Below the pieces are notes generated by a model. It saw nothing but the letters and a program-made list of their open reading frames with translations. It searched no databases and was not told the DNA's origin. Below, piece after piece: positions 6,487 to 44,514 of a DNA stretch of 64,000 nucleotides. The stretch lies in contig JAUCBJ010009158.1 of NCBI GenBank assembly GCA_032718475.1, forward strand, positions 44,143 to 108,142, given 5' to 3'. This DNA comes from Nemertoderma westbladi (taxonomy: Eukaryota; Animalia; Xenacoelomorpha). Positions within the stretch are counted from its first letter, which is position 1. Each line of letters begins with the position of its first letter. A program made the translations under genes and the position numbers.

Positions 6487-6489
6487 TTA

Positions 6490-17401: not shown

Positions 17402-17415
17402 AATATATAAAATAT

Positions 17416-21510: not shown

Positions 21511-21907
21511 TCTAAAAGGTTCAAGTGCGATATCAACAATTGGTACATTTGCAACAATATTATGCGAACTTTTCAGCGTTCTGATGTTTTACTCTTAGCG
21601 CAGTAAAGTACCGTATTGCAGCGTTGCGGCCTATAGGACGAACGTAGTTATACTTCTATAACTAACTATCACTAACTTAGTAAATAATCTCTTAAACACG
21701 TCTGGATTCTTCTGCACAGCTTTTAGCAACCATTATATGCTAATTTTATGATTGTTTACCGTAACTTTGTTGTAATAACTGCAATTAATTAGTGATACAA
21801 ATTAAATTGGATATGAATTACATCAATATTCCTAATTATTCCAATATCAAAATGAAAACTTTAAAAGAATCGAAATTACTCTAACTTTTCTGAGAATTAT
21901 CTATTTA

Positions 21908-22114
21908 GGCCGCGTTCACACTACCGAGTCAAAGTTAAAGTCAAAAGACAAAATATAAAACTATCAAAATATCATATATATATAAAAATATCACATGAAA
22001 TTAATTTTTTTCTAGAATGCCCTTATGTATTATATTAGGCCTATATAATGTATTATTATTTATTATTGCTAGCTAGCTATATTTATTTTCTTTTGACTTT
22101 GACTTTGACTCGGT
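21908..22114. mobile_element. PIF/Harbinger-type MITE, left part (its last 15 bp lie at 44515-44529)
   Basis: TTA at 21905-21907 and 44530-44532; TIR GGCCGC(G/A)TTCACACTACCGAGTCAAAGT(T/C)AAAGTCAAAAG; related empty site CTATTTAGATAGACCAGCC at ~44723 and ~51603. Confidence 0.88.
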
Positions 22115-25100
22115 GGTTCCCCACATGGGGTATAGAAACTCGCGCGGCCATGGGCAGGGTCCCCATCTCGCCGCGCCTAAAAAAAAAAAAAGTCTACAAA
22201 AACCGCTGCTGGCTACCGTCAACTCGAAACCTGTAACCCCCATCAAAAAAAGTTTAATCGTAAAGTTGTAGAGAAAAAATTCTAAGGGTACGTCGCGTCT
22301 TCGATTTTTGAATTAAACCCTAATTTTCTAGAACATTCGAATTTTCTAAAAAAGAGACATTCTCAAAAGCATATCAAACTCGAGGCACATGATCCCTGCG
22401 ATTTTCTCCAAACTTTGATAGAAAATAGATAAAAGACGTAAAAAAAATCGCCCCGAATAAAATTCGAACTTTTATGTGTAGATTTCTAGAAAACTGTGCT
22501 TAAATATTCACAATTCCAGAACAAATTTGTCTATTTTACGATAATTTAAATCTCAGTTTGTGTGATATTTACGACAAAACGTAACATCACAAAGTTGGAG
22601 CTGAATAATTTTTTTAATTTTTAAGACTATTTCGAACTCTGTACGACAAGCCGTTCTCATTCTACAGACCTCTGAAAAACTTATATTGCTTAGCAACTGA
22701 CATGACAACGGCCGGTACTGGTAGGGGTTAATTATATCGTTCGCCGCTTCGTTTCTCTTGATTCTACCGATCTGAAACCAATTCTATTCGAAAGAACAAA
22801 GTTTTCTCTATCTACTGGTATTCACAAACCCTCTAAAAGTGATGGGCATATGGGCAAAAAAGTGGGCAAAATATGGGCAAAAAAAATGTAACTTAAATAT
22901 TTTTGGTGGAATTTTTAATTTTTTTTTTACATACAGTAAGTATATCGAAAGGGCATCGCCGTAGAAAAGGTTTGGACGTAATTTGAGAAAAATCCGTCAA
23001 CGCAATCAAAAGTTATTCGAAAAAGAGTGGGCGCGCTGTATCGCACAGCATAATTATTCAATATTACATTGCGTATAGGGCCTACTATACGCAGAGCACT
23101 CCTATTGACGTCATTAAATGTTCCCAGAACATGTATTTATTTGTCATTGGTTGAGGCAGTAGGTAGGAGTTGTATGGAATCACTGCGAGGGGCCAGTTGT
23201 GTTCTATAATTCGAATTGTTGTTTCTAAGCAACCCCACAAACAATACACACAGATTACAGTTGGGTACCGTACGTACCTGTTGCGTGTAGTTTGGTTTTA
23301 ATTGCTGTACGGCAGTTGTATAAATGTACCACATTGACGATGTTGTTATATAATAGATTAATTACGTATGTTAATTAACGCAATTAATTAATTAATTGAC
23401 AGGATGACATCATGGGAGTAATTGTTTTTAATTTACTGTAATTTCTGTATGGTAAGCAAAGCATGTTATAACTGAACGCAATTTTAGCAAGTCAATAAGT
23501 ACTGTAAGTTCCTGTGGTACGGATTAGTTATTCTTTGTCAGTGTAAATTAAATACAGGTTTGTTTGCTGCACTAATTATTCACGGAGCGGCACTACTGTA
23601 TACATTATTATTAGCAGCCTACTGCAATAATTTAATTACGTAATAAAATAGTAAGGATCCGAAAAATATTAGTCTAAATGCCGCTGTAAACCCGGTTTTG
23701 TTTGCATTATTTGATAAGGGGTACAGTATTCTGCCTATTGTAGTGATTTCGATATGGTTTTATGTGATACTGTACATAAGTAGGCCACTTTATTTTACTA
23801 ACTGCCAACTATATATTACATGTATTAGCCAACAGCTAAAAAGACATTCCGAACTCATCGCACTGACTGGCTATTTCGCCTTTGCTTGCATGGAATCCTC
23901 AACTTAGAATTAATTCTGTGTCATCTTCAGTTCCACTCCGAGTTCCATATTTTTCTGTATTTCTTATCAACCAGCCTTTATCTGCTTGTCCGGTGTCTGC
24001 CACTCGCAGTTATATTCACGAGTATAGTAAATTAGTCCCGGCGTAGCGAGAACGATATTAAATTATGAAACTCATCTTCCAGAACATTCTGAACAGACTA
24101 CAGTATATGCCACTTGTATTGTAAGCCTGCATCCCGTTGTACCGGAAGTTATTCTGTAGACGCCGTGCTCCGTGCACCTCGCCCTTAAGGAGGGGTTGCT
24201 GGGGTTAGAGAACAACAAACACTCGGACCTCTTGTACACACGTCCTTTAGTTCCGTTAATAACTCTGTTAGGGTCTACTGTACCTTAGTACTGCAGATAG
24301 TAAGTCATCTTGGAGAGGTCGATTTAAATCACGAAACGCATCACTTTATTAATTTTCCTTATTTACTAGTACCTTCTGTTAAGGTTATCATCAGCCTACA
24401 CCCCGCGTGTACGTCGACCTTGTCATTGTGCTATCGAATCTTGTCCCCACCCCCCACACATTACTTTGTACACCAACCTAAACAATGTTTCGTAAAAAAA
24501 TATTTCTTTATATAAATCCCGTTCTCTATCTAGCCTTTATTGTTATAATTGTTTATTTATTAACAAACCAGAATACACCGAACAAATGCTTCAAATTATT
24601 TTTTTATAATTAGGAATAAATTTCATATTTAATTGGGTTCAATAAATATGGTTTAGATAAGATTTTTATCTTATTGTGTAAATGTTCCAGCGGTATAAGG
24701 AGCTCTTTTATGGTAAAACATATTTACTGTAATTGGTGATTAATATTTAGAGGCTTTGTAATATATTTATATTTTATTTAGTTAGATTTGCTACTGTATA
24801 TAATTACTGTGGCGATTCTCAGGTTCAAATATGAGACGAAGCTATTCATACTGTGGTACCTGATACATAAAATATTTTACTTTACTTTGTGGTACCATCC
24901 AGGGTCTGACAACATCTACTGTACAACACTACGACAAAATAATAATGCATTTAGCTATAGAGGACTATATTTTACATATTTTAGGCCTACTGTTATAATC
25001 ATAGACTAACAACATGACTTTGAGGAAATTAATTTAATATCATATGGTACGAGTGCGACAGTCGCCCTAATTATATGTAACATTGATACAATCTTATTGG

Positions 25101-25954
25101 CACTGATTGGAAATTGAAACAATGTCCGATAATTTCTTTGACACAAATTGAATTTTAAAATAGAATAATGTATATGAAACCAATAATAAAATCAAATTGC
25201 GATTTTTTTAATTTTAATTAAAAAATCGCAATTTAATTTTTTGTTAAATTTACTTACATTATATTTTTGCTGTTATGTTATGAGATGCAGTTTCTTAATT
25301 ATTTTCTATATGAGGCAATATATTCGCATATTAATAGTCGAAATATTTAATGTAAATGTAGAGTAGAAATATATTATAATTTTGTCAGAACTGTGGGATG
25401 AATTCCCTAGCACAAATCACAGGTACTTTAGTAGTGTATATAAATGTTTAAACTAAATGTTATGAAGCTGAAATCAACGTGTTCAAATGCAAAAATGTTT
25501 ATCCTGTCCTGTGTTTTGCTGATGTAATATAGGAATGGTTAACTGACATGGTTGTTCGTGGCTTTATGTGGCCCACATAAATACATTTTCCAAAATAAAC
25601 TGTCTATGCACAAACAGTACAGACTGCAGACAGCCCTTATTAAATCATAGTTCGTTACGAGATACTTTTAGTTTAGTTGGTGTTAGAAATATTACGTCTC
25701 CATCAATATCTACTGAGTAATGACATACCAGGTATAATGCTGTGCATTAAAAGTGCAGTGCTAATTATTTCATGTATTCGATATATTACATTGTTGCTTG
25801 GGTACTGGATACATTCTAGAATTATGTAGTTATTATTTTGTTACTGTTTTTATAAAGTATTTGTGTTTGGTATATCATGTACAGTATTATTATTTGTACT
25901 ATAGGTTGTAGTTTGTATAAAGTGTATAGGTGTATGTTAATGGGATCACTCGGT
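22115..25954 (-). mobile_element. Non-autonomous partner (3840-bp unit) of the HUH-helicase element
   Basis: Left ~1.3 kb nearly identical to 25955-27230; right end TAATGGGATCACTCGGT identical to 44498-44514; no long ORF. Confidence 0.85.
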
Positions 25955-28900
25955 GGTTCCCCACATGGGGTATAGAAACTCGCGCGGCCATGGGCAGGGT
26001 CCCCATCTCGCCGCGCCTAAAAAAAAAAAAAGTCTACAAAAACCGCTGCTGGCTACCGTCAACTCGAAACCTGTAACCCCCATCAAAAAAAGTTTAATCG
26101 TAAAGTTGTAGAGAAAAAAATTCTAAGGGTACGTCGCGTCTTCGATTTTTGAATTAAACCCTAATTTTCTAGAACATTCGAATTTTCTAAAAAAGAGACA
26201 TTTTCAAAAGCATATCAAACTCGAGGCACTTGATCCCTGCGATTTTCTCCAAACTTTGATAGAAAATAGATAAAAGACGTAAAAAAAATCGCCCCGAATA
26301 AAAGTCGAACTTTTATGTGTAGATTTCTAGAAAACTGTGCTCAAATATTCACAATTCCAGAACAAATTTGTCTATTTTACGATAATTTAATATCTCAGTT
26401 TGTGTGATATTTACGACAAAACGTAACATCACAAAGTTGGAGCTGAATAATTTATTTAATTTTTAAGACTATTTCGAACTCTGTACGACAAGCCGTTCTC
26501 ATTCTACAGACCTCTGAAAAACTTGACATTGCTTAGCAACTGACATGACAACGGCCGGTACTGGTAGGGGTTAATTATATCGTCTCGCCGCTTCGTTTCT
26601 CTTGATTCTACCGATCTGAAACCAATTCTATTCGAAAGAACAAAGTTTTCTCTATCTACTGGTATTCACAAACCCTCTAAAGGTGATGGGCATATGGGCA
26701 AAAAAGTGGGCAAAATATGGGCAAAAAAAATGTAACTTAAATATTTTTGGTGGAATTTCTTGATTTTTTTTACATATATCGAAAGAGAATCCCCGTAGAA
26801 AAGGTTTGGACGTAATTTGAGAAAAATCCGTCAAAGCAATCAAAAGTTATTCGAAAAAGAGTGGGCGCGCTGTATCGCACAGCATAATTATTCAATATTA
26901 CATTGCATATAGGGCCTACTGTACGCAGGGCACTGCTACTGACGTCATTAAATGTTCCAGAACATGTATTTATTTATCATTGGTTGAGGCAGTAGGTAGG
27001 AGTTGTATGGAATAACTGCGAGGGGGCCAGTTGAGTTCTATAATTCGAATTGTTGTTTCTAAGCAACCACACAAACAATACACTGTTCTTAGGCAGATTA
27101 CAGTTGGGTACCGTACGTACAGTACCTGTTGCGTGTAGTTTGGTTTCAATTGCTGTACGGCAATGTACCACATTGGTACTGTAGTTATATAATAGATTAA
27201 TTACGCATGTTAATTAACACAATTAATTAAATTATATTAATTAATTATTTATTTATTTATTAACTAAAACATAGTTTAATTTTAATTTCGTTGTACCGAA
27301 GTGGCGAAAAAATACCACATTGGCAGTGCAGTTGCGTATATTGTAGTAGATTAATCGCGTATTTTGTTTATCGCACCCACTTTATAGAATGACAAATACG
27401 TAATAATGATTATTACATTAGTAACGATAACACAAATATTAATTGTTATTTTATAACATTCAGAAATCTGCCTCTTATTTATTCTAGTCTTTCGCGTCGC
27501 ACACGTCATTGCAATTATATACTGATACATATATTTTACACTGAAGACGGGTGTGATCAAATTCCGTAATTCCCGTTCGCAAAATCGATTCCCCTTTTGC
27601 ACACGATTTTATAACAATAATAGTGCCGCTGTATTATCCTAAAGTACATATTATTATTACTGTAATGTAAAGAAACATCATACTACTATATATACTGTAC
27701 GTACATTCGTTGTTTGTTACCATTATACTGTATATAAGTGTTGATGTTTTACAGTATGTTAATAAATCTTTCGGAACATCGTTGTGCAGTATTGATTTTA
27801 TTCCCCCCCCCCCCCCCCCCCCCCCCTGTATGATACTGTAGAAATTCATACCTTGTCTGATTTTAATTATGAGGCAAAATAAAGGAATGGTTTCATTCAA
27901 ATGGAACCGAACCCACCGATATCACACATATCACACTGCATGTTTATTTCAATTTCATTCTATTGTTCTTATACCGTCGCTTCCAGGATGTAAGAGACCC
28001 GCCACCCGGATAAACTGACTCTGAGGAGGATTTATTTATTTCGGGAGAGTGCCGGGGAGGGTAGTTTTGTAAATAATATATTAAAATATAAGGTTGGAAA
28101 TGTTATCGCTTTATTATTGATAATCATAAAATATACCTACTAAATATCATAACATATAATAATTAATTTTTCTGTAAGTGGTGGATCAATTGGGTTCGAT
28201 TTATGCTCGAATACCATTGTTTTATATTATTATATTATATTATTTACAGCAGAAACATACCACATTGAATTAATATATTTATATAAAATCTATATTTATA
28301 AATTGGCAGAGATCCCAAAAGTTGAATCCCAAAAGATCATATTTTTGTGTTGGTTACCCCAAATGTTAATAATTTCTCAAAATATGGAGCTTTTTTAATA
28401 TTCTAAAGAAGAATCCTCTAATAATGCAGTACAGTAAGTAGTTGTAAGAAGGAAAAATATAGGGCCTAAAATAATTTCTTACGAATTCAACGAGTTTGTT
28501 TTTATTTGAAAATATTATACAGTACAGTACAACCGTACCGTAGCTTTTTGTATAAGCTCCGTACAGTATTGTTCGGCATTATACAGTATGCTATAATCAT
28601 ATCATTATAATAATATAGCAAGTCTTGGCTATAATAGATTAAATAACTCGACAAAATTATGTTCGATATTGCGTGGCTCATTAATGATCGAACAGTACAG
28701 TACAATGTAAAATATATAATAAAACATATCCAATAAATTAATGTACAAATGTACAGTAATACAAACACCAAATTCTTTAAGTAGTATATATTTACTATAT
28801 ACATCCCCCGCAGTATTGTTTACTGTATTTGTTTATAACCATTTGAGGTTGTTTATGCGCTCTTACATTAAAAGTATAGGACACTATACTATAATGCGAT

Positions 28901-29228
28901 ACTTACGAAAAATACAAAAAATAATAGTACATATATTTACAAAAATACATACACACTGTACGTACACATATAAGTACTATCAATACCTACAGTATGATTA
29001 ATATTGAAATTGATATTATATATCAATATATATTGAGTATATATTGAAATATACTCTGAGTATCTGTCGTGATGCGCCCAATGCGTAATTTTGTTGTAAA
29101 AAATATTATAAATATTGAATATAATATTGAATATTGAAATATAATTTGAAAATTTTTAAAAGTTATAATAGCCGTGAAGCAGGCCTAGTTCAAAAATAGT
29201 ATAATATTATAATTTAATTAAAAGGGTA

Positions 29229-32200
29229 TTAGTTTTGTTTATCGGTAGGTCTCTTTAAAAAATCAGGAGGATCCTTAAGGCTTCCACAAACTACGAGATT
29301 TAAGTCTGGATGGAAGGGTTTGTGGATTTGCAACGTGTCGTGAGCTGCGACCAATACTTCCTTTGGGGGAGCATTGGTCCAATCGTACAGCTCGTTTATC
29401 CGAAGTTTCCAACCAGCTATGACCTGTTGCCGTTGGTAACTGGTTCCAAGTTGATAGTCGAACCCAGTGAAGAAGGCGAGCACTGCCCATGGTCTTAGTG
29501 AAATGTTGGATGTAAAATCATCACTAGTGCCAAATGTACCCCCTTGGTTGTGGTTCTTTAGGGCAGATACCAGACTCTGTGACTCCCCTATATAAGTGAC
29601 GTTGGGACAGGGTCTAGAGATCAGGCAATATACGTAACCGGAAGTTGTTTGTGGGAGGGTCACATTACCTGGCCGGAAGGGGTGGAGACTCATGTCCACT
29701 ACGGGGTAGAGGTCGGAAGGTAGTCGTTGTGCATTGGTTGCCACAACAGACAACACATGTTCAATGTACACGTCGTACTGACTTACCTGACGTAGTAAAG
29801 TAGATGTAGCAAGGAGAATGTCGTCCTTGTTTCCTACGAAGGTCAGGTTAATTAGAAGTTCTAGTCTACTAATCAAGACGATTAATTGAGAGCGGAGCCA
29901 GAGGTGGTACTCGCTCTCAACCTCACTAATAGCGGTGGCTAATTTTAATATTGTATCTCCTAAGATACGATGGATAGTGGCCGCTATAAAATGTCGCAAC
30001 GGGTATTGTGTTCGACGGCCACTAATTCCACGGCCTACTGAATAAGACAATGACTGGAATTTACGAATTGTATATTCCTTCCAACCACTACCTTGTAGGT
30101 CGTCTGGAACCGACCTTTGGCCGGGTGGAGCCACCATTACTTTAAATGGCCCGAGTGGTTGAGTAGGCAGAGAGGTTACTACACATAGTTGGCCTTGGAA
30201 GCAGCCTTTCCGGGAGAGGTCATTCCGTGTGACCCGCATGACAGCACCACAGAATAGTGTGAGTACTTGCTCATCGGTTCGATTATTGAGGACCTTACTT
30301 GTGGCAGCTGAAGCAGACTTCCAGGCAGATTGACCAGTTACTGACTCTTCATCTTCTGCAGTGACTGCCATGCACTCCTTTCCACTGCTTCCAACGACAT
30401 GCAACATATGTTTAACGCTCTGCCGTTCGGCCTTTCGCTTACCAAAAACCCTCAAGGTAGAGGAGTCAACCTCGTCCCAAGTTCGTACGAAATTGCACTT
30501 CCTAGAGAGAATAGAGGTGTACTCTATAATCTCATCCTCGGAAAGGTGCAATTTCCTGATAAGTGTGTTCACCCGAATAAGGTCGGGGTCAAGGGCGGAA
30601 CGGACAAAATGGTTCAATAAAATGATGTTGAAGGTAGTAAACATATGGGTTGACACCCATATTGGATGACCTTTTACTGGGGGCAGCTGTTTTGTATCGC
30701 CAGTGGCAATCATTAGTACACCGCCCAAAGGAGAGTCATTCTCACGTACATGGCGGAGAACCTGATCCAGTACAGCGAACATCTCCGCGCTCACTGTACC
30801 TATTTCTTCTACGAAAAGTACATGTAAATTTCGCAGATAGGCCAACTTCTCCTTGTGGTTATGTAATTTTCGTACCGTTTGTTCCGAGTTAACTGTAACA
30901 TTAGTGATGCCACCCTCGTGGTCAATCACAGGAATTGGCAGTAATTGATGGATGTGTATTCCACCAAATTTAACTGCTCGTTCGGCGGCCAATGATGTGA
31001 ATATAATATTAGCGCCACCTGCGATGGCATAAACCGCACCATAGCACATCACTAAAGTTTTCCCAGTGCCTGGTGGTCCAAGGATCACGGGGAATTTTGA
31101 ATAACTATGGTGCCCCGAAAGAAGTCTATCAACTGCCCGAGTTATGCACTCTATGGCATATTTCTGTTCCTCCATGGATTCCTGGGATTGTCCGGGGGCC
31201 ATTCCCAATTGGGGTTTCCATGGAAGAGGCCGTTCTAAAGTGGCAGCCATCAGTTCATCTAATGACGGCATGTTGACGATGGCTACGTCGAACTTTAATG
31301 CTCTTATTGTGGCCAGTTTGAGATCATGCAGCATTCCTGCAATTTTTATGGTATTTTCCTCTTGCAGTGTACTTAGGAGTACAGTAGGTGTGTCATAAGT
31401 AGTCACCTCATTGTTGAGTATGAGGTTTTGCAGCACATGATCCGCTGCCACAATATACTTATCGGACATTCTCACCCCACCTGGAACGTGTCGCAGTTGC
31501 TCCCACTGGTATTTGGTGAGGATTTGGTCTACATTCTCCTGCGTGTAAGGACCAGCAGCGGGTAAAAGTCCCGCTCTAATAAACGAGTCCCTCATTGTTG
31601 GAACGAGGAACAGGTCTATTTCTGTTATAAACTCCCCCATACTCAACAATAAGTGGACTAAGAATTTAACAGGGTTCATTGGTGTGATGGTTCGGTCGCA
31701 AGCAATTGGAATTTTGTCTTTGAATATACAATTTTGGTATACGTAATTACTAGTAACTTGCTTGTCGTTTAATTCTATTTGATGTATTATGGACAGCATA
31801 TCAGTAACGCGATCTGAATCGTTGGCATGTTTACAATTATAATTTGTACAATATGATTTTAATTCATTTACTGCAGATGGCCGTAGTTGTACTATATGGT
31901 TGGTACCATCTACCCACATTGACTCCCGTATATTTGTTCTTAATTTCCTTTCGTGTATAGATTTAATTTCAGATTTTTTGGATGGCAATTTAATTTGGGC
32001 AAACCAAGTTAAATATAACTTTGGTCGTAAAACAAACAAGAGTTCTGGTGGCCGCAGACAAAACACCGTCATTAGATCAACTGATATGATGGAATCCTGT
32101 TGATCTACCATCGTCATAGTTTGGTTCGATGTGAAATGACGATGGGATGGTAGATTCAGCAGTTGTGAACGAACACGTTCGCATTCTGTATGGGCTGGAT

Positions 32201-34016
32201 GCTTTGGATTTTGGTTCTTCCAAGGCATAACAACCCCAGCCCTATTTTCTATGGAGGTGGTTGGAATATGGATAAATTCTGACGACGGGACAGTCACGGG
32301 GAGGTGTAAAATGTGCCACCCCAACTCAGGAGCACCAACAAGCCGAGCAAACACGGTCTTTTGTTTACTAGCTTGTTTCTGCAATTCCTCCTTGCGCAGA
32401 ATGGCGGGACCTGAAATTTTAATGTTCTTCAGCTCATCCTCCTGAGCGTGAACTACATTGGCCGAGGCTTGGCCTGCGGTGAATCGTACGTCCCGTTTCT
32501 CCTCAGCACCGGCAGCGTATTTGACGCAATAATGTGAACTGGTGCAACCATCGCACACTAACAGGTTGTCGTTGCACTGTGTGGCCGCAAATAATCTGTT
32601 GTTACAGGGCGAGAATATTGGATAGGTATACTCTGAGGCGTAGAAGTGTTTCCCAGCACGGATTGGGGTATGCAATTGGAAGGTGCCGTATTCATTGATT
32701 GTGGCCATACCCAGTCGTTGGTAGACCTGTAACGCTTCCTTGGAATGATTGTTTGGTAACTCTTCATAATAATGTCCATGCGATGGCGGGTTCACGTGTT
32801 TGCGGCAAATACGCTGTCCGGAAGAGTCTACCTTCTTATGGCAGGTAAACCCCGATTTCTCACAATCGTGGATGAGACGTACCAGATTGCGGTAAATCTC
32901 ATCCAGGTGGTCTCTGTCTCGTATGAGACCCTCAGCAAGGAACTCCTCAATCTCATCATTAGTAAAGAATGTCTGTTCAGAGGCTCTGATGCGGAGAAAT
33001 ACCTCATCAGACTCTTTGTCGGCATTCTTTACTATGATTAGAGAATGTATATGTGGTACATTCCCTTTGGTGTCCTGGAACTCCCAGGTGTACCACATAT
33101 CGTCAACCTCACCAAGAGGCTGCTCAGCTGAAAATCTAATGTAATTCATATGATAAGATCCAGCTCTTTGGACGGACCGGAGGAGCTGGATCATGGCGGA
33201 CTGGCGAATCGATTCTGCCATCTTACGAGTGTAAGTTTCCCCAACACAGGGAAGTCCGTTATCTAAGATGTATTGTTGGCGGTGTTTCTCGACAATACAT
33301 TCTACCTGGTGAAATATAGGCTTCACACCGTAGTGGCTGTCCATGGAGAAAGAGTGAGTATAAAAATATGTAGGCTCACCCCTCTCGGCTAGCCAACTAG
33401 CCAATTCAATGACCCGGGTGTTACTGTCAGTAACATCCAGGTTTAATAACCCTGTCTGAATTCCTTTTGGCAGGGTTCCAGCAAAATTTAGTATATCTTC
33501 CCAACCACGGTTGGAAACAAATCTGGTGTCCGTATTTCTTAATAAAATATTTAATAAAGCATCGAAAATAAACTGCAAGTAGCGTGGGTCGGTGGAGGTT
33601 AAAAGGTCTTGGTTTAAAACCCGCACTTGCAATTGGTTACTAAGTGTTTCAAACCCCAACATTTTCCGGGCGCTGGAATTTCCCCAAAGGGGATGAGGTA
33701 TGGCACCCGGAATTGAACCATCCTCCATTAATTGCCAAAAAATGGAAGGGAAAAGAATTGATTCGGGGTACATTAATGATACGGACTTTGTTGGTGTAGT
33801 GGCTACGAGATTTTCCAGCCATCTCTTAAACGATGCTGGCGTATCTACCACATGTCCCCTTCGTTGTAAGAGTCCCATCCCGTGGTTGAGAATAACATGT
33901 CCAGGGACCATCTTTCTTTCAACATTAAAAGAAAGGCTCGACAGACCACTGTCTGTCTGAGGAACAGCACCTGCCGGGTCATGGCCAGTGTCATCAGAAA
34001 ATACACTGGCATTCAT
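29229..34016 (-). CDS. Rep-helicase: HUH endonuclease + Pif1-like SF1B helicase + C-terminal GIY-YIG nuclease (C-terminal part of a disrupted ~2,670-aa ORF)
   Basis: HUH motifs YFYTHS, WYTWEFQ...PHIHSL (~33045-33095), YCVKY (~32516-32532); Walker A GPPGTGKT (~31057-31080), VLFVEEIG, GDTKQLPPV, FVRS, QYPL...AATIH...G; GYVYCLIS...TYIGES (~29580-29640). Confidence 0.9.
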   Translation of the reverse strand: MNASVFSDDTGHDPAGAVPQTDSGLSSLSFNVERKMVPGHVILNHGMGLLQRRGHVVDTPASFKRWLENLVATTPTKSVSLMYPESILFPSIFWQLMEDGSIPGAIPHPLWGNSSARKMLGFETLSNQLQVRVLNQDLLTSTDPRYLQFIFDALLNILLRNTDTRFVSNRGWEDILNFAGTLPKGIQTGLLNLDVTDSNTRVIELASWLAERGEPTYFYTHSFSMDSHYGVKPIFHQVECIVEKHRQQYILDNGLPCVGETYTRKMAESIRQSAMIQLLRSVQRAGSYHMNYIRFSAEQPLGEVDDMWYTWEFQDTKGNVPHIHSLIIVKNADKESDEVFLRIRASEQTFFTNDEIEEFLAEGLIRDRDHLDEIYRNLVRLIHDCEKSGFTCHKKVDSSGQRICRKHVNPPSHGHYYEELPNNHSKEALQVYQRLGMATINEYGTFQLHTPIRAGKHFYASEYTYPIFSPCNNRLFAATQCNDNLLVCDGCTSSHYCVKYAAGAEEKRDVRFTAGQASANVVHAQEDELKNIKISGPAILRKEELQKQASKQKTVFARLVGAPELGWHILHLPVTVPSSEFIHIPTTSIENRAGVVMPWKNQNPKHPAHTECERVRSQLLNLPSHRHFTSNQTMTMVDQQDSIISVDLMTVFCLRPPELLFVLRPKLYLTWFAQIKLPSKKSEIKSIHERKLRTNIRESMWVDGTNHIVQLRPSAVNELKSYCTNYNCKHANDSDRVTDMLSIIHQIELNDKQVTSNYVYQNCIFKDKIPIACDRTITPMNPVKFLVHLLLSMGEFITEIDLFLVPTMRDSFIRAGLLPAAGPYTQENVDQILTKYQWEQLRHVPGGVRMSDKYIVAADHVLQNLILNNEVTTYDTPTVLLSTLQEENTIKIAGMLHDLKLATIRALKFDVAIVNMPSLDELMAATLERPLPWKPQLGMAPGQSQESMEEQKYAIECITRAVDRLLSGHHSYSKFPVILGPPGTGKTLVMCYGAVYAIAGGANIIFTSLAAERAVKFGGIHIHQLLPIPVIDHEGGITNVTVNSEQTVRKLHNHKEKLAYLRNLHVLFVEEIGTVSAEMFAVLDQVLRHVRENDSPLGGVLMIATGDTKQLPPVKGHPIWVSTHMFTTFNIILLNHFVRSALDPDLIRVNTLIRKLHLSEDEIIEYTSILSRKCNFVRTWDEVDSSTLRVFGKRKAERQSVKHMLHVVGSSGKECMAVTAEDEESVTGQSAWKSASAATSKVLNNRTDEQVLTLFCGAVMRVTRNDLSRKGCFQGQLCVVTSLPTQPLGPFKVMVAPPGQRSVPDDLQGSGWKEYTIRKFQSLSYSVGRGISGRRTQYPLRHFIAATIHRILGDTILKLATAISEVESEYHLWLRSQLIVLISRLELLINLTFVGNKDDILLATSTLLRQVSQYDVYIEHVLSVVATNAQRLPSDLYPVVDMSLHPFRPGNVTLPQTTSGYVYCLISRPCPNVTYIGESQSLVSALKNHNQGGTFGTSDDFTSNISLRPWAVLAFFTGFDYQLGTSYQRQQVIAGWKLRINELYDWTNAPPKEVLVAAHDTLQIHKPFHPDLNLVVCGSLKDPPDFLKRPTDKQN

Positions 34017-34179
34017 TGCAAAATCTAGATCGTCTGTGTAATCTAGAGGTTAATGAGAGATGACCTCTACTTCCGGGGACACGTCACAATACACGTCATC
34101 AATGACGTCATCTTCACTAAATGGCTCATCATGCTCTACAGTCAGGATGGCCTCATCTTCCGGTGGAGGAAAAATGAAA

Positions 34180-37100
34180 CTACCCCGTTCTGAAGAACAT
34201 GACTGCCAGTGCTTCCTGCAAAGTGCAGCTGCGCATTGCTTGCAGGGTTGCGCAGTAAATGCTGGACACCTCCAAGCAGCCATCCTTTTTGCACCTCGAC
34301 CCATTTTCTAATGTTTCTCCACATTTGAATATATTATTTCGCAGTTCTCTAATAAAGGGATGCCGGTGTGTGGCACATTTAACTTTAGATTGGCCACCCA
34401 TTGATTGTAAGGTTTGGTCCCTTAAAAGGGAGCCGTCTACACTATATATAGTTGTATAGACTGCGAGAGACCATTTTCGCAGTATGTCAGTCGGCAGTAC
34501 TGGAGACTTTGTTGGAGTCTTGTTAGACTCTATATACCATCCATTAACCCCGAAAGGATATGACTGGTATATGATGGCGGAAGTGGAGGACGAAGTGGCA
34601 AGGAGGCGTAATTGCCAGGTATTGATATGGTTTACGGAAATAATTTTCGCCGGGACAAATGGAGTGGAAAAGGCCGGTGATGGCCTTTCTACTTTTAAAT
34701 GGGAAAGAAGTCGAAATGATGCCGTTCGTGGCGTATCCATAAGCCTTTCTACTGTCGATATCAATACGACATTCACTTCCGAAGATGGTGGGAGATTCTG
34801 AATAAATGCAGACACATTTTCATTAGAAATAATGGCTCTATGTTCAATCCGAATATTTTCTATTTTGTTCAAATTGGAGAAGATAGTAGCCACTTGCTGC
34901 GGCACTGGCGCTGCGCCCTCTATTGATGGGATGTTACGTAAAACTTCATTAATTTGTAAATCAGTTGGTCGTTTAATGAATGGTATATTTCTATTACTAT
35001 TTTTTGAGGCAGTAAAGGGTTTACTATATTTAGACAAATAGCGTAGCAGATAGCCACACCATTTGAAGTTTCCGTCATTGACTGAAAGTTGTAATGACTT
35101 CCACACTGCATCCACGTTAAGTGAAATGGAAGAACAAAGATACAGTACCAAGTTGCTATTATCTTTTATGATAGGTACTAAGGGCATAGCGCCGTAGCCG
35201 TCGCAATTTTGCACGTTTGGAACAATTTTCGGCCACAATCTCATTTGGGACGAGTTGAACTGTACCGGATTTCCAACTACAGTACCTATTACAGGTTCGG
35301 GTATATTTGGGTGGTTGTTAAGTGGTTCAACAACGGCATCACCCTGGTCAGCCAACAAAACTGGTGACTGAACGCGGTTGCAAACTACGTTCCCCAGAGA
35401 AACTTGCTCCAAAACCTGATCAATCTGATCATCAGGAAGTGATCCAATATGTTCCGGATCATTTTCCTGAATATGTTCCAGATTAGGAACAGTCACAGTC
35501 CCTAACTGGTCCCGTAGTGCTAAAGCACTTGATAGAGGTAGTGCAGTACCTTTGGATAGGGCGGAGAACAGTCCCTGTAAATCCAAAGGTTTAAGGACAT
35601 TAATAAATTGCTCCATTGTCTGCTCAGACAACTGACCGTTATTTACAAGATTGTAAAGTAGGGCCAGGCAATCTGGGCGAGTTTGGAGCAATAATGATTC
35701 TAACTGCCCCACTCTCTCGTCTGTGACATCAAAACGTCGATCAGTCGTGAGAGTGAAGCTGGTCATACCGGAATACGCTCCCTGTTCCTCCCACATTTGG
35801 TAGGTGTGGGAAGCGTATCCGGCTTTGGCTGTTCGAAATGTTCTCGGAACAAACACTGCGGAGCCAAGGCGGTCGGGAATTGTGCAGGGGAAACTCCCTA
35901 AAACAGGGTTGGGTGGGACATGTAAGTAGCGAAGGGTATTGCCACCCTTGTGTAGTTTACACACACGAATGCACAATCCCTCTTCGTTGGATATCGTAAC
36001 TGACGGAGCAACTTGGAAAATTTCTAGGAACTTTACTGTCTCCATCCAATCAGGACGCATATATTTCAGATGTTTAGAGCAGTAGACAGTGAAGTCGGGG
36101 ACGACTTCATTTAGTATCGCCGCTAATGATATTGGTTTGGAGTATTCTAGAAACTCGTGACAGCCATAAACACATCTAACCGAACAACTTGGGTGTCGAT
36201 TAAGTGCGGCTATGAGTCTCACGAGTTTCATCGAGTTGATGTCATCTAGAAACACCGAGATATCAGTGGTAATATCTCTGAAATATGGTGGTGGCGTTTC
36301 TATGGTGACATCAACTAATGAGTGGTGCATTTGGGACACTGAAGGCAACCACGATTCCCGCAAGGATGTTGTGATGAATTTCCACGGATGAAAATCATCA
36401 ACCACACCTTTAACGGAAAGGAGGTGCCAGAGAACAGAGGGCCACATGAAATGCCATTGGCGGTTTGCAGACTTATTTTGTTTATCCAGATAAATTGTAC
36501 ATAGTGTGCACAGTATTGCACAATTATTATCTGTACTACTTTTATTTACATGTCCGAAGCGTTTATTACAGGCCACGGAATTACAGTATATATAGCCGAG
36601 GTCTAACTCGTTAGAGGGTAGAGCCCAACGAAAACAATTCTGGCACATTAAAATTTCTGTGCTGTGTGTTAATGATTGCGGTACCATCGCAATATCTGAC
36701 TCATTTGTGTTCAATGTGATTATAGAGCGCACTGCTTGGATGGCTCTATGTGACCTACAGTAGTACATAGAATCAAATGCCACAAAAGTGTTATGGCAAA
36801 CTAAACATTGTTGATGCCTACTAATTTCGAGAGGCTGGATGGAAACTTCTGAGTCACTTCCGATTACCTCCCCGTCCGAAGTAAAATCGTCAATATCATC
36901 ATCTGATAAATCAAATGATGACGATGAATCACCAGCTGATGATTTTTCTATTCTACTCACGTCACTGTCACTATCACTGCTTTCTATGTTAGCTGACGCT
37001 GCACTACGACTGGTATTACTTTCAGGGTTGCGTTTACTCCAACTCATTTGATGAGCATTGCAATATAAACTACTTGTTCTACAAATTCGACGGCATACCT

Positions 37101-37230
37101 GGCACCTTTGTCGGTTAACACGGGTTCTTGGAGTGTGAGACTCATTTTGGGACGACATCAGGATGGATTCCTCCTCGTCACTGTCGGGGTATTCTAAACT
37201 GGATTCCGACTCGAATCCATTATTGTACAA
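34180..37230 (-). CDS. Cys-rich N-terminal part of the same transposase polyprotein, function unknown
   Basis: 1016-aa stop-free ORF with several CxxC/CxxH clusters; joins the Rep-helicase frame if one A is removed at 34286-34290 and the TAA at 34050-34052 is read through. Confidence 0.78.
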   Translation of the reverse strand: MYNNGFESESSLEYPDSDEEESILMSSQNESHTPRTRVNRQRCQVCRRICRTSSLYCNAHQMSWSKRNPESNTSRSAASANIESSDSDSDVSRIEKSSAGDSSSSFDLSDDDIDDFTSDGEVIGSDSEVSIQPLEISRHQQCLVCHNTFVAFDSMYYCRSHRAIQAVRSIITLNTNESDIAMVPQSLTHSTEILMCQNCFRWALPSNELDLGYIYCNSVACNKRFGHVNKSSTDNNCAILCTLCTIYLDKQNKSANRQWHFMWPSVLWHLLSVKGVVDDFHPWKFITTSLRESWLPSVSQMHHSLVDVTIETPPPYFRDITTDISVFLDDINSMKLVRLIAALNRHPSCSVRCVYGCHEFLEYSKPISLAAILNEVVPDFTVYCSKHLKYMRPDWMETVKFLEIFQVAPSVTISNEEGLCIRVCKLHKGGNTLRYLHVPPNPVLGSFPCTIPDRLGSAVFVPRTFRTAKAGYASHTYQMWEEQGAYSGMTSFTLTTDRRFDVTDERVGQLESLLLQTRPDCLALLYNLVNNGQLSEQTMEQFINVLKPLDLQGLFSALSKGTALPLSSALALRDQLGTVTVPNLEHIQENDPEHIGSLPDDQIDQVLEQVSLGNVVCNRVQSPVLLADQGDAVVEPLNNHPNIPEPVIGTVVGNPVQFNSSQMRLWPKIVPNVQNCDGYGAMPLVPIIKDNSNLVLYLCSSISLNVDAVWKSLQLSVNDGNFKWCGYLLRYLSKYSKPFTASKNSNRNIPFIKRPTDLQINEVLRNIPSIEGAAPVPQQVATIFSNLNKIENIRIEHRAIISNENVSAFIQNLPPSSEVNVVLISTVERLMDTPRTASFRLLSHLKVERPSPAFSTPFVPAKIISVNHINTWQLRLLATSSSTSAIIYQSYPFGVNGWYIESNKTPTKSPVLPTDILRKWSLAVYTTIYSVDGSLLRDQTLQSMGGQSKVKCATHRHPFIRELRNNIFKCGETLENGSRCKKDGCLEVSSIYCATLQAMRSCTLQEALAVMFFRTG

Positions 37231-40200
37231 GTTACAGTATGAGTCGTGTGTTTCAATCTGGTTAGTACAGTACTTACGTTTTCACCAGAGTTAGTGTCTG
37301 TTGGTAACATGACCTGTACCTCAGGTGGTACTATCTGGCTACTATAGTGATAATTTGGGGATCGTTGGCGTTTGATAGAGGAATCTCGCTGTTTATGGAT
37401 GACGTACCAACAGCAGACAATTCACAGCGGTCGCAAACTTCGGATAAACCCGACCGTTCGTTCGATATAATGCATTGGCATTTGGAACATTTGTTTATAT
37501 GTCGCTTACGTTTTTTGGACACGAAAAGCATTTTGATTTTAGAAAGGATTTAGACCCTTCACCACAGATACTCAGATTTAATAGTTTAATGTAATATTAG
37601 ACTTACAGTACGCCTACACATATATGTTTTATATTGTAATTAACAACAAATAAGGCAAAATTAACCCAATTGATCCAAGTAAATATCCTACAGTACAAAC
37701 AAACATTTACATTTACAAATAAACATTTAAACAGTAACAATAAACATAAACATTTAAACTTTTAAACAGTAACAATAAACATAAACATATAAACATTAAC
37801 AATAAACAAACATTTCCAATATTTAATTAAATAATTCGTATACTTATTTATATTCTGTTGAATATTCGATATATTCAGTAAAGTTCCACGCTTGTCCCAC
37901 AGCAGACTTAACTGGATCCAAGCAGAATTTAAACTTTATCTTTAACAGACTTACTGTATAACAGGTTCGTCGTGGAAATATGAATATATCTGAAAAGTAA
38001 ATAAAATTAATGTAAACGATTAAACGATGGTGGTAAAATAAAAGGTTAATTAGATTAACTAGTTAAGGATTAAAAGGCAGTATATACCAACTGTATAATG
38101 AAAGTAATTTTACCGGTACAGTAGGTAGGCCTACAGTACGTACTGTAATTTATTATTGGCGTATTCAAATTAAATTATTTCCGTCTAATTGAGTCGACGT
38201 AATTCGCAGGAAAAATGTTGTTCCCGTCGCTAATAGATACTGAGTTTTAATTGATAAGATAATTAACGGAAGAACTACTGTTTGTTATGTTGATGATAAC
38301 TATAATAATATTACGTGTTATAATAATTTATTTATATACTACTGTCAGACTAACGGTATCAGTTTATTATGCAGAATAAATCAGCAGGCCATTTACACAA
38401 CGTTGGTGGTAAACTTTTATTTAGTTGAAGAATCATCCGAAGAATCTTTAGGTTAAGTTAAACCTCCTTGTTAGGTTCAACGTTAGGTCCAACCTCCTTA
38501 TAAACACTGTGTGATTATTAAGCACTGAAAGAAAAATATTGCACAATACAGTACTTATACAGTATACAGAATAAATGGAAAGTGACGAAATAAATGTCGA
38601 CCTACAGTATAATACATAGGCTTATACAGTATTATACCATCGAATATGCAGGTTAATGTTATCTGTATCGCAAGCATTTATCATAGCGAACTGCGTACAT
38701 CAATTAATAAAATCTAATAATTTATTGTCACGATATTTTTACCCCTTGAAATTTTGTAATTTATTACATAAAGTACAACATAGGCCTAAATTACAGTTCG
38801 AGTTCGGTATTAGTTATAGGCCTAGTATGAGTTTATATTTAGTAAAACAACTTTTCAATGTGATTCCACCCACATGTGTGTAATTATTATTAAGATACTG
38901 TATGGGAGACCTACGATATTGTTTAAATACAGTACCGGTTGGCATAAGGTACAAGAACAAACTAAACGTGATTAACAAACCTGTTTGTTATACTTTGTTA
39001 CAATAATCTATCATCTGTTTCTATAACATCTGTAACATCTATAATCATCTGTTTCTGTATCTGTAATCGTTATGGGCGGAGAGACGAAGAGTAAGCGATG
39101 AGACGTAGTACGCTAATCGACATTACGACATACTGAATTCGATTAAATCGTCCGCGACCGCTATACTTCTTACCAATGACCAATCAATTTGTTTGATTAA
39201 TTTGTCTGTTTGTTAACCCTTGTCATCAGGTATAATTGGCCAAGTGATACTGTCTGACTGTAGTACTAAGTAAAACAATGACAACAGATGTTACCGATAG
39301 CGAAACTCATTAATTGCCTATCTTAAATAATAATTCAGGTTAAAAACACTTAAAATTTAAGAAACAAAACGTATCCAACCCTTTTGGGCGCCAAAGTAAA
39401 AGATCCTGTACATATACAGTAACTACTGATTGCAGCAACTACACCGGCAGACCGGTACCGCTACCGCTAAGCGCTACCAAAAGCAGACGGCCAGGCTGTC
39501 AGGCAGGCTCAAATACTTTTAGTACCGCGGTAGTAAATGCCACCGGCTTGGTCCTATACCAGGAACCGGTCATCAACTATCTGACCATCTGTTAGTCCAC
39601 TTATATCAGTTATGCTATGCTACTATCAGACTACATGTATGGTCAGATGGTGGTTAAGTAGCCCAACCATAAATACTTCCAGTATTATAAATGCAACTGT
39701 TTGTACAGCCTGACAGCTGTTACTGTAATCACTAGTCAATGTTCAGGCTCCTAAATATATAATTCATTATCAGTTACAGGTACAACCATCAGCGAATCAA
39801 ACTGTCAAATATACTTTCAGTTTTAAACCATAACACTGTTTTAGCTTAAACGTACCGATACCGCTTGTAGGCCTATATCGAGGTGTACTAAATAATTTTA
39901 GTTATTTATTTATTTGCAAACACTACCTACTTTTCTAAATAATGTTAGTTCTTAATTAAGATATTTTAGTTAATTCATCTTTTCGTTCACCTTGGCCTAC
40001 ATTTGGACTTAAGTGTAGGCCTATCCTTAATCAGCTGTATACCCTACCGGTACTAACTACTGTAGGCCTATCAACTACTAAATTTAGTAACTGCGCCGCT
40101 CTGCCGGTAGCTGTAATCAGCAGTGATTTTAGTTTACTGATAATAAAAACTTTTAGTAGGCCGAACAAGACGGTACCGGTAGCGCGGTAGCGTTTCCCTA

Positions 40201-43200
40201 ATCTGTGCCAGTTTAAACTATATAAATTTTAGCAACAGGCAACTCAACTAGGCCTATTATAAAAACTTTCAGTATTCTGAAAGTAAATACCTGCAGCTGT
40301 AATCACATGACAATGGTCAATAATTAATATGTACGGTACTGCAGTCTGGCAGTTCCTTTGACACGATCCATAGGCCTACATACACTTTCAGTTTTAAGCC
40401 AAGGCTTTTCTCATATACTTTCAGTTTGAAAATAAATATGTTCAGCTACATTTTTTAAAGTTACACTGCGTATTTATTTTACCTGGTATACAAAATTAAT
40501 CTGAAATTTGTTTGTATTTATGATCTGTATCGAGTTAGTGGCGCAAATTGTAAGAAATATTGAGTTCTTTTATGATAACTATAAATTATGCATATCATTT
40601 TTAAGCGCCCTTTATTCTATGATGCTTTCCTAATACCCTTCCCAAATATCCTTCCCTAAGTCCCTTAACGCCTTCCTTCATAATACTGAACACATTTGTC
40701 ACAACTGTCATTTTATCGAATATCCCTATTTATGGTAATTACACCAATATTATTATTAAAATACCGGTATATTAAATTATATTAAATTATATTATTATTA
40801 TATTATATATTATAATTTATATTGCATCGTATCTATATGTATCTATCCTAGAGGTCATGTTAACCAAAATTAATGGATGGGCTCGAATTTATTTTATAAA
40901 TTCGTGGCCATCCATTCCTTTCAATTTCATGAGTGCGCTTTAGTTTTCCAATACCCCATTAATTATGCATGGAGATAATTATTATATTCTTATTAAAAAA
41001 ATATAAGAATTATTATTTATACCAGCGGTAATATTATTTATTCAAAATATAATGTATTGATTGATTATTGAAAATGAAAATGATACATTTTTATTTATAC
41101 GGTAACTGTCTAATTCATAGATTAAAGTACAATTTGTGGCTTATATTTCTATTAATTTATAGTTTTTCTAAAAAAATTTGCCTCTACAGCAACTGTATAT
41201 CAACCATAAACCACTTAAAACAGAATTAATGAAATAAACATCCTGCACACACATTATACTGTACAAACATATACATACATATACACATACAGTATATATG
41301 TACAGCATACACGTTTGTTTTTAGTACCTGTAACAATGAATGTAGCTTTGTTTACTTCTGGCAATAATGCTGTAATAATAGGATGCCTGTTTTTCATACT
41401 TCTGCATTCTGTACTTAATACAAAATACAGACATACCTGTACCCTGAGTTACTTACCATAGACCATTATAGACTCCATAGACAGATAGACATACTGTATT
41501 TCAGTATTTCATTAGGCCTACTACAGTACTTGGTACTAATGTGCTGCTGTAGGCTGTATACTGCTATGCTGTTATTGTGATACGGTACAATAAAGAGATA
41601 AGATGCTCTTGATATACTTAAATATGAGATATACTGTATCGTAACTAACTGTCAGACTAACATCGTGGAAGTGCAGGCAGTACCGTACTGCTACTGCAGT
41701 ACAGCAGTATTACTGTATTACTGTATTATGCAGTTATGTAGGCCTAAACAGCTATATGTAACGTTGTAACTGTCGCCATAGCCAGAGCTCTATCAGTTAT
41801 AGAGTCTATAGAGTTGGAGTTATACCGTCAACAGTAAAGGCACGGAAACAGGGAAAGTCTACCTCTACAGCCAGACAGCTGTATGATCAGATGATGTAGG
41901 CCTACAGATGTAGGTGTTCTTCTACTTCTAAAAACACCCTAATACAGTACTACTCTGCTACTGCAGTACTGTACTACTGTGCTGTACTATGTACTATAGG
42001 CTTACATGATACACCGATACCTCGATACAGCAGCTGTACAGTGCAGCAGAGCAGTGATCAGGTGATAGGGAGATGGCCATTACGGCATTAACCTACCGCT
42101 ACCAGTCAACTAGAACTAGTCTCTGAGTCTACGTCGATATGCAGTTATCAGGTTATAATCCCTGAGTACTGACAGACTGAGTACCGGACTGTCGGAAGGC
42201 TGGCAGGAAGCTATCAGTTTCTGAATTACTTATGCAGGCCTACTGCAGTACTGCTACTTCCAGGTTCCAGCTAACCAATGTCTGGATGTGGTAATGTCGG
42301 TCTCGCCATGGAACTCGCCATCATCGGTAAGTTCTCTACCATCGTCTCGGCCGTTCAGCCGGTAAGGGCAGTCAGCTCTGCAGCTGGCTGGCTGGGCAGA
42401 CAGTTGCGCTTTTTACAACAAAGTACCACCATACCTGGCTATTCCTATTCTATATAGCTATCGTTGAGGTTAACCATTAACCTACCTGTTAACAGCTCAG
42501 CTCAATACCACCAACCTAACCCTAAATTCAGCGGTCTGGCTGTATCTCATTGTCTCATGACGTGTGAGTTTTACCGAGTTCGACTTCTATACCACCGCCG
42601 ATCAGCGTCGTTCCTATACAATATCCTACGGCAGTACAGCAGTGTCGGTTGTTGTACTCCCGTTCAGCCGTTACTCGACGATTGGCTACTACTACTGTAC
42701 AACGTCAGTATCTTCACATCGCTTCTGTCAACCGTATCCGTTTCTAACCCGCCGTGTCTCAACAACTTCCGTCTCATCGCGCGTTAAAACGTACTCTATT
42801 CTATCGGCTGTTAGCTAACAGGTTAATGTTCTTTACTACACGTGGTTACATATCTACGAGTTATGTAAATTAGTTCCAGTCTACCAAAACGATATTAATT
42901 AACACGCCGTCCTTGTGTTACATAACTCGAGGATTTTTTATTCACAATGTCATCCCTCTCTGTAACCCTTTCGTAACAGAAGTTATTCCGCAACCCGGCC
43001 CACCACCCATTAAAGCTAACATCTCGTCCTTGAGATGGGAAGGAAATAAAGTTTAGTCGGGATAAATAATAAACTGCGTCCAATTTATTTATTTACTACA
43101 AATATTCATTCGCCCCTATCCTAATCCCCTCCACCTCCCACTCTTATTATTTAATTCGGTTATTATATTTATAGGCCTACTCATTTAATGTTAGTTAATC

Positions 43201-44514
43201 TCATTTAATTAATAATATAACCGGAAGCGGTTTTGTATTAAATCTTTCCTATTTATATATATAAATCTATATTTTATTTCGTTCAATAAAGCCTTACATT
43301 ATATTATACACATGATATGTTTAATATAACTATTTATTATATGTTTCAGCAATATCATTTGCTGCAAAAATATATTTGGTTTATTCGTTGCTGAATAAAT
43401 TTCGATGCTTTATAAAATATATAATTAATCGTTTCTCGTGGCTCCTAATGCACTTTTTACATATACATTTATTTATATGTTGGGGTTTATATCCGTATGG
43501 ATATAAGTATTACGATGTCAGTGTTATTGTTTCCTTATTTCGTATTGTTTTGATATTTTTACAATTAGTATATTTCAGCTCAGTCTGTGTCTCAATTATA
43601 TATTTACCAAACCCAACTCATGGTAAACAAACAATAATGCTGGATCAATTAGTTGTACTAGAGAGAAATATAGAAATCTTAACTTATCCTGACCAAACAT
43701 GGTAACATTGAGTTTGATTGTAAATGCAGATTAACTAACATGTTGCTGAATATATTTATTTGAGTTTGTTGACACGGGATAAATAAAATTATCTGAAAAC
43801 GAATAATAACAAAATTATCAACTAATAAAATCATAAGTATTTTTTGTTACATAACCTTCAAATACGATCTCTATGTTCTACATATCACTCTGATTAAGTG
43901 CCGTTTTTGCACTAATTTATATTATCAGGCGCTGAATAAATTCGTATTAATTCAATAAAAATCAATATATTTAAATTAAATATATTGTAGTTTTATGAGG
44001 ATTCAATATATGGTGGAGTCAGTTCTAATAAGATGATAGAACAAATCCATTAGAAAATGTCAAGAAATGTTTTAACTGAAAGATTACAAATCTAAATTCA
44101 ACGATTTAAATGTTACCACGTAGTCCGTGGTGTTTATATTTCGGTTGATGGTTAATAAACAGGCGGTCCGATTCGTGGCATTACGTGACGAGGTTATATT
44201 GTAGTGAGTAGGAAATCTATTCTAACAGTAAAGTTTATCTGTACTTCAACCTACAAGCAGACTTGATTAAATTATTCTATCCATATAATGCTTTATGTAC
44301 ATTGAGAAAGCGGGTCATATTTTGTAGTATTTTAATTAAAATCACAGGGTTGCTTGGCTACTATAGTTATACATTCTAGAATTATCAATATATAGTTAAT
44401 ATTTTACTATTTTTTCATACAAATTATATTTTCTTGGCTTATATTTTGCTTTTTATACACATAACTGTAAATACTGTATATATTATTGCATACTTATTAA
44501 TGGGATCACTCGGT

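Follow-up and report, generated by a model that had tools for sequence, protein, structure and literature searches.

Shared heptamer at the target and the head-to-tail joint of a Helitron-like Rep-Pif1-GIY-YIG element in Nemertoderma westbladi

Helitrons have been described as nearly indifferent to their target (A|T, T|T). Their canonical layout comprises a T at the start, a 3' hairpin followed by the end, and a T after it (PMC5148889), and in Helitron-like elements (HLEs) it is the 3' end that is conserved and the 5' end that varies (PMC11417382). Longer targets are on record for FoHeli1/2 of Fusarium, which insert at TNAT|T, and for Helitron2, which inserts at TTTT|T (PMC5148889), as well as for the Paramecium Helitrons described as a "third clade" (Arnaiz et al., 2026), whose 3' stem-loop and CCAA precede the C4A2 repeats that serve as their insertion sites (PMC13085455). 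In the bacterial IS91 family, the target tetramer of IS801 and IS1294 is the terIS cleavage site itself, GTTC, and no duplication arises, the CTTG target of IS91 is similar to its CTCG terIS, and circles with joined ends are formed (10.1101/2025.01.24.634351). Circles with precise joints have likewise been reported for Helraiser, and tandem arrays of Helitrons have been described (PMC5876387). A GIY-YIG domain is mentioned in the parts of PMC6431247 covered here only for Penelope-like elements and Terminons, and the only related report found on such a domain in Helitron-like elements concerns one Sphagnum HLE2 family that captured a GIY-YIG and uses T|T sites (PMC11417382). The present analysis deals with 64,000 nucleotides of the nemertodermatid Nemertoderma westbladi (contig JAUCBJ010009158.1, positions 44,143 to 108,142, forward strand; hereafter the window), in which two head-to-tail units, one of them encoding a Rep-Pif1-GIY-YIG protein, interrupt a miniature inverted-repeat transposable element (MITE) at a heptamer that recurs in the joint between the units. 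No description of the ends or the target of this Rep-Pif1-GIY-YIG branch was found in the literature, Repbase and subscription journals lying outside the search.

Read directly from the window, the heptamer ACTCGGT (plus strand) stands at all three junctions, 22108, 25948 and 44508, exactly where an earlier note on this DNA had placed it. On the coding (minus) strand the 44508 junction reads host CACACT-ACCGAGT-GATCCC, the 25948 junction GGAACC-ACCGAGT-GATCCC and the 22108 junction GGAACC-ACCGAGT-CAAAGT host. The end motifs GGTTCCCCAC and TAATGGGATC have two occurrences each in the 64 kb, solely at these junctions. The locus is laid out as follows:

21905 to 21907, plus strand: left copy of the TTA target duplication of the host MITE; a MITE-less join is seen in contigs of runs X1-X3
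21908 to 22114, plus strand: left 207 bp of the host MITE (inverted repeat 38/40)
22108 to 22114, minus strand: ACCGAGT at the 3' end of unit A; putative nick between G (22109) and T (22108)
22109 to 25948, minus strand: unit A, non-autonomous and 3,840 bp long given the putative nick (22115 to 25947 without heptamers)
25948 to 25954, minus strand: heptamer where the units join head to tail (B with its 3' end, A with its 5' end); identical to the predicted circle junction
25949 to 44508, minus strand: unit B, coding-type copy, 18,560 bp with the putative nick
44508 to 44514, minus strand: heptamer bounding unit B at its 5' end; in it ACCGAG would belong to the host target and T would open the element
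44515 to 44532, plus strand: last 15 bp of the host MITE and the right TTA (44530 to 44532)

Excision of the insert in silico joins 21908-22114 to 44515-44529 and restores, as the earlier note had proposed, a complete MITE; it is 222 bp long, its 40-bp inverted repeats match at 38 of 40 positions, and TTA stands on either side (21905-21907 and 44530-44532). From this TTA duplication we take the MITE to be PIF/Harbinger-like. It has lost nothing, and both ends of the element are exact. The left inverted repeat carries ACCGAGT at 21923-21929, an unused heptamer, the targeted one being that of the right repeat; the heptamer was therefore present in the target before insertion, and this part of the earlier proposal stands. 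The window contains ACTCGGT 11 times where 4.1 would be expected; none of 100 shuffles reached 11, and only four of these occurrences, namely the junctions and the MITE end, fit TnACTCGGTRGT.

Public sequencing runs were compared for X1, X2, X3 and X5, of which X2 and X3 stem from one sample; the evidence consists of the pieces listed for 24 of 271 loose ends, with 2,294 further pieces outside that listing. In three of the four runs (X1, X2 and X3) contigs join 21908/21897 straight to the sequence after 44533 and thus display a MITE-less site, although these joins may be paralogous, since the flank itself is repetitive. Contig depth summed over the MITE bins amounts to 13,000-32,000 in X1-X3, which points to a very abundant repeat. 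The stretch 20784-21470 recurs at 49587-50267 with 96-99% identity, which makes the host region a repeat in its turn. Flanking the insertion on either side are arrays whose unit measures 145-147 bp and which have ACAG/AC microsatellite parts (17415-17872, 19896-20761 and 45852-46230).

The two units, which had been taken for copies of one element, turn out to be related rather than identical. At the left end, about 1.29 kb is common to both with 94.6% identity, the first 800 bp or so containing only 7 substitutions (about 99% identical) and more following beyond; their right ends have in common an exact 18-nt terminus and patchy similarity over about 150 bp and differ otherwise, and about 2.5 kb of unit A is without match in unit B. 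These differing 5' ends rule out a concatemer of a single element or template. Unit A is non-coding and is covered by contigs in X1-X3 and partly in X5. Because the gene of B is broken and A has none, both units would depend on an enzyme supplied from elsewhere.

On its minus strand unit B contains two frames of 1,033 and 1,606 amino acids. Five full-length relatives align with tblastn across both, and the frames therefore derive from one ancestral protein of about 2,700 amino acids, broken twice, by a frame change near 34310-34350 and by an in-frame stop at 34050-34052. Its parts are:

34050 to 37281, minus strand: Cys-rich N-terminal part of the ancestral protein
29229 to 34049, minus strand: Rep-helicase-nuclease part, 1,606 amino acids from stop to stop
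33086 to 33045, minus strand: HUH motif
32531 to 32508, minus strand: two-tyrosine motif YxxKY
31079 to 31056, minus strand: Walker A motif of the Pif1 helicase
from about 29636, minus strand: GIY-YIG domain, without the conserved Arg and Glu of its family

No Pfam family matches the Cys-rich part at E ≤ 0.1. For the window frames Pfam returned Pif1 at E 3e-10, with Helitron_like_N and GIY-YIG below the cut-off; in 19 relatives (E ≤ 0.01) GIY-YIG was recognised in 14, Pif1 in 16 and Helitron_like_N in 10, and neither DUF6570 nor an AP endonuclease was seen in the two window frames or the 19 relatives scanned. Compared with 1.84 billion proteins, the Rep region has relatives in 812 clusters at E ≤ 0.001 (168 at 1e-30), the best 150 of which were viewed, and the full-length ones carry a Y2 HUH Rep fused to Pif1 in one frame. 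Perkinsus olseni (KAF4681268.1) and the hagfish Myxine glutinosa (UniRef100_UPI00358ED190), both eukaryotes, are the named members, organism names being attached to 2 of the 30 clusters looked up. In an alignment of 41 sequences H-x-H is invariant and Y495/Y499 are nearly so, and the profile built from it matches residues 697-750 of Helraiser (E 1.4e-5), the stretch that contains the catalytic Y727/Y731 (PMC5876387); phmmer against Helraiser gave E 0.39. The predicted model (pLDDT 78.9) has a single Foldseek hit at E ≤ 0.001, the Helraiser structure 7LCC (E 1.3e-6), with a VIA Z of 15.6 and an rmsd of 4.0 over 334 residues at 13% identity, the next hit scoring 6.4. Judged from sequence and predicted fold, the unit B protein is a Y2-HUH Rep with a Pif1 (SF1B) helicase and a GIY-YIG domain and thus Helitron-like in a broad sense, which bears out the assignment of the locus to the rolling-circle type.

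In the GIY-YIG domain of the window, Ala stands in place of an Arg present in 63 of 77 relatives, and Ile in place of a Glu present in 62 of the 77 (181 proteins screened). These two residues we take to be catalytic, and the degenerate domain argues against a second nuclease making a duplication. Between HUH and YxxKY lie 166-193 amino acids in 80 relatives as against about 125 in one canonical-type protein, P0180, which was reached at E 1.6e-4 and has a median tree distance of 5.6 compared with 3.0 within the family; with 50 sequences and this single canonical-type protein, the Rep-core tree is too thin to name a clade. None of 46 candidate stretches from viral and none of 32 from prokaryote collections was confirmed as a relative, and longer forms of 3,281-5,000 amino acids were absent among 1,745 candidates, which is weak evidence. 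In the relatives P0045, P0032, P0011 and P0005, a Ulp1 (C48) protease or OTU-like domain is present at the N- or C-terminus.

Comparison of the 16 possible heptamer splits singles out ACCGAG|T on the coding strand, which yields a 5'-T start, a CGAG-3' end and a T following it. CGAG matches CTAG at three of four positions and sits 10 nt after a hairpin, and under this split the layout would thus be that of a Helitron in which CGAG replaces CTAG and G|T replaces A|T; the conserved end then becomes the 3' end, and the variable end the 5' end. No split of the 16 produces CTRR, CGAG being the best. As to 5'-TC, the coding strand gives TG at best, and the TC split of the other strand ends in TCAC at the end that has no hairpin; the heptamer contains no AT step on either strand and no TT step. 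Target and head-to-tail joint both read ACCGAG|T and agree at 7 of 7 heptamer positions, at 8 of 9 bases before the putative nick and at 2 of 3 after it; the chance of a heptamer match at the target is about 4e-5 at window composition. The shared 3' end carries:

22119 to 22130 and 22142 to 22176, minus strand: two subterminal hairpins (counterpart in unit B at 25959-26016)

This end folds at -16.5 kcal/mol (z -2.05; 9 of 200 shuffles fold as stably). Of the two hairpins, the small one is a 4-bp stem that closes 10 nt before the putative 3' end and is missing from the centroid structure. Neither 5' end folds better than its shuffles (z +0.68 and +1.43), so no 5' hairpin is apparent, and an inverted repeat common to both units is absent, unit A having one of 9/10 lying 28 nt inside and unit B at most 7/8. 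The last 73 nt of the coding strand contain no visible Watson-Crick guide complementary to ACCGAG, so that target selection by base pairing of the IS608 type finds no support. Two more CGAG words lie in or at the foot of the large hairpin (22136-22165, minus strand), one of them followed by T, and are possible alternative stop points. Rfam has no matches in 21800-44700.

Outside the assembly, the heptamer in the head-to-tail joint, which the earlier note had read from the window, recurs in a 310-nt contig of X1 that bridges 25721-26031 with one other letter and two gaps, at a depth of 105. The five unit-A-only contigs listed for X1 have depths of 79.5-105 and the listed MITE-variant joints 18.5-42, contig depth not being equal to copy number. 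Since 13 of 250 and 21 of 198 letters in the listed 3'-end contigs of X1 disagree with the window, a difference of 5-10%, the X1 joint probably belongs to other copies, present as tandem arrays or circles. The outer junctions (22108 and 44508) are not among the run pieces listed and therefore rest on the assembly. In metagenomes, 43 of 82 candidates are relatives. Two loci (L027:147-220 and L030:1-20) show, some 5 kb upstream of their Rep match and oriented opposite to the gene, a twin hairpin together with a core, ATGGG..GGGTCCCAT, that resembles the 3' end of the window. As a conserved terminus this resemblance was rejected, its score of 23 falling below 25.3, the mean best of shuffled queries; 22 of 40 shuffles reach the best real score of 25, and the fold has a z of -1.59. 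Several relatives lie on ENA contigs of equal size, namely P0001/P0024 (31% identical, 335,743), P0192/P0195 (43%, 294,117) and P0187/P0188 (528,941), which gives a hint, and only a hint, of clustered family copies in other genomes.

Our favoured reading, which we hold with moderate confidence, is that the Rep recognises ACCGAG|T of the coding strand both at the 3' terminus of the element and in the target and that no true duplication is made; the flanking heptamers would therefore be one host and one element copy, and a new site would arise at each end. By analogy with Helraiser and IS91, the coding strand would be nicked at ACCGAG|T at the 5' end, the helicase would peel it off until the hairpins halt it, another cut, at the ACCGAG|T of the element itself, would close a circle, and the circle would join a genomic ACCGAG|T. 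The regenerated sites could then let related units stack, either through another targeted insertion or through a circle recombining via the shared 1.29 kb. Thus, of the claim that stacking proceeds by targeted insertion, the joint is real and the route has a competitor, and of the claim of sequence-specific integration, the pre-existing heptamer and its identity with the joint hold at this site, one target being too few to establish it across sites. It is possible, if doubtful, that the unnamed and widespread Rep-Pif1-GIY-YIG branch as a whole integrates in the IS91 manner at 6-9 nt set by the 3' end of each family.

Several observations weigh against the favoured reading. The window was chosen for its striking junction, and this selection weakens the argument from chance; the nick position cannot be read off a single locus, and the hairpin signal is modest (z -2.05). 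The depth of the X1 contig is not a copy number, X1 may be related to the source of the window, and among the pieces listed for X2, X3 and X5 none bridges the middle joint. One genomic target is known, no second target site or other flank being present among the run pieces listed, and 0 of the 43 metagenome loci show a boundary, as there are neither overlapping ends nor a near-identical pair diverging at one. Published duplications of 7-19 bp in some Helitron2 (CRe) elements (PMC3627910) point the same way.

A short core of 2-4 nt (e.g., G|T or CGAG|T) that met a lucky match, with the tandem arising by circle recombination or by self-insertion as in Helitrons, would bring the locus close to the A|T, T|T, TTTT|T or TNAT|T used by known Helitrons (PMC11417382, PMC5148889). 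In favour of such a core, there is one target only, head-to-tail junctions and arrays of Helitrons are known (PMC5876387), and the shared 3' ends, about 99% identical over 800 bp, suffice for recombination. We nevertheless regard it as unlikely, because the other five bases would match at about 1e-3 given a dinucleotide core, and the remaining three at about 1-2e-2 given a four-base one, both before selection, and three further flanking bases agree too. The three junctions would be explained equally well if 7 bp at a specific site had been truly duplicated; the element would then be only GATCCC...GGAACC, the staggered nicks would come from Rep and GIY-YIG or from host repair, and the second unit would have inserted into one heptamer copy. 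Replitron-1 makes duplications (PMC10288648), and the C-terminal GIY-YIG found in 14 of 19 relatives scanned (E ≤ 0.01) is placed like the AP endonuclease of Helentrons; the window copy of that domain, however, has neither the conserved Arg nor the Glu, and ends without the heptamer lose the T start and the CGAG end. Moreover, in X1 the heptamer joint is as deep as the element body, which under duplication needs repeated insertion at the same site and follows automatically if the joint is the element's own circle joint, and so we consider true duplication quite improbable.

There is also a slim chance that no transposase targeting was involved and that host repair captured a heptamer-bearing circle or linear copy at a break in the MITE. 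The 7-nt stretch shared at both outer junctions could be the trace of microhomology joining, and again there is a single site, but both element ends are exact, the MITE loses nothing, and capture would have had to open a circle exactly at its joint. That the outer junctions are an assembly artefact is most improbable: although the region is repeat-rich and these junctions are not among the listed run pieces, one MITE is split exactly, its removal restores 38 of 40 inverted-repeat positions and TTA, the empty join occurs in three runs, the middle joint is found in X1, and the nearest assembly gap, the 100-N gap at 9561-9660, is the sole one in the window.

If the branch as a whole does integrate in the IS91 manner, it would be a scar-free, site-selective eukaryotic integration system with a cargo of up to about 20 kb, able to build mixed head-to-tail arrays and to land in host repeats that are abundant, in the present case in the inverted repeat of a MITE. 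An enzyme that reads at least 6 bases before the nick at its own end and in the target would form a mechanistic link between Helitrons and IS91 and account for mixed tandem arrays, and it would explain why annotation tools that rely on ends miss the Rep-Pif1-GIY-YIG branch; Helitron target choice would become testable with short oligonucleotides. The locus provides a branch that has hundreds of protein clusters with a defined pair of ends and a target anchored by the empty site.

The remainder of the window holds further repeats. At 490-6804 lies a sequence resembling an LTR (long terminal repeat) retrotransposon, whose direct repeats (490-789 and 6505-6804) are 100% identical as far as listed and which contains two overlapping frames (1301-2977 and 2917-5988) with protease-, reverse transcriptase- (RT-) and integrase-like motifs, read by eye. 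Also read by eye were overlapping gag-like (zinc-knuckle) and protease/RT-like frames at 46533-49237 (plus strand) and a LINE-like reverse transcriptase at 54540-56279 (minus strand), the frame of which is split by a stop at 55566. Inverted-repeat structures stand at three places (56740-57737, 60930-64000 and 11347-11933): 10-bp arrays that oppose each other at a distance of 658 nt, arms of some 250 nt (99%) that enclose 2.6 kb, and a nested fold-back. A 27-bp tandem array at 6967-7977 falls within a Glu-rich frame of 329 amino acids.

The idea of a target that equals the element's own end is less unprecedented than the earlier note had assumed, in view of IS801/IS1294, the Paramecium Helitrons, FoHeli1/2 and the duplications of Helitron2. 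With HLE1 (Helraiser, 7LCC) the window element has in common the Rep fold, the two-tyrosine motif, Pif1, the 3' hairpin, the T after the nick and the combination of variable 5' with conserved 3' ends; the HLE1 hairpin lies about 10-12 nt before the 3' end and that of the window, given the putative end, 10 nt, with a larger hairpin upstream. It differs from HLE1 in starting with 5'-TG rather than TC, in ending with CGAG-3' rather than CTRR, and in having G|T in place of A|T, a fused GIY-YIG and a longer HUH-to-YxxKY spacing in its family; identity is 13%. HLE2 (Helitron2, Helentron, FoHeli1/2) resembles it in the C-terminal position of the nuclease (Helentron), the OTU domain found in some window relatives, the 5'-T and the longer target preference of FoHeli1/2 and Helitron2, but the window element lacks the common asymmetric inverted repeat (8-15 bp), the 5' hairpin, T|T, the AP endonuclease and DUF6570. 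In its ends and target it thus departs from both HLE1 and HLE2.

Replitrons are likewise eukaryotic HUH transposons with short direct repeats at their ends (PMC10288648), and the same paper remarks that site-specific targets would blur element ends (Craig, 2023). Their Rep, however, is of the Y1 type without helicase, in contrast to the two tyrosines and Pif1 of the window, and the TAAAGG repeat belongs to both element ends, with an RG target and variable duplications (PMC10288648), whereas the window heptamer flanks both ends with one copy that pre-existed in the target. The nearest eukaryotic precedent would be the Paramecium clade, compared here by description: its end matches its target and its very large HUH-Y2/Pif1 proteins stand outside HLE1 and HLE2 (PMC13085455), but these proteins measure 3,052-3,592 amino acids against about 2,700 in the window family (PMC13085455), and the target is a telomeric tandem repeat with CCAA rather than a MITE inverted repeat with CGAG. 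The main text and seven supplementary files of that paper, its domain figure being outside the search, contain no mention of "GIY" (PMC13085455). The IS91 family (IS91, IS801, IS1294 and IS1294b) is bacterial and has no fused helicase (PMC10288648), and its target is a tetramer rather than 6-9 nt; it shares Y2 HUH rolling-circle transposition with the window element, and a target equal to its own end without duplication fits the single site seen, so that by analogy the element would work like the IS91 family without being a member of it.

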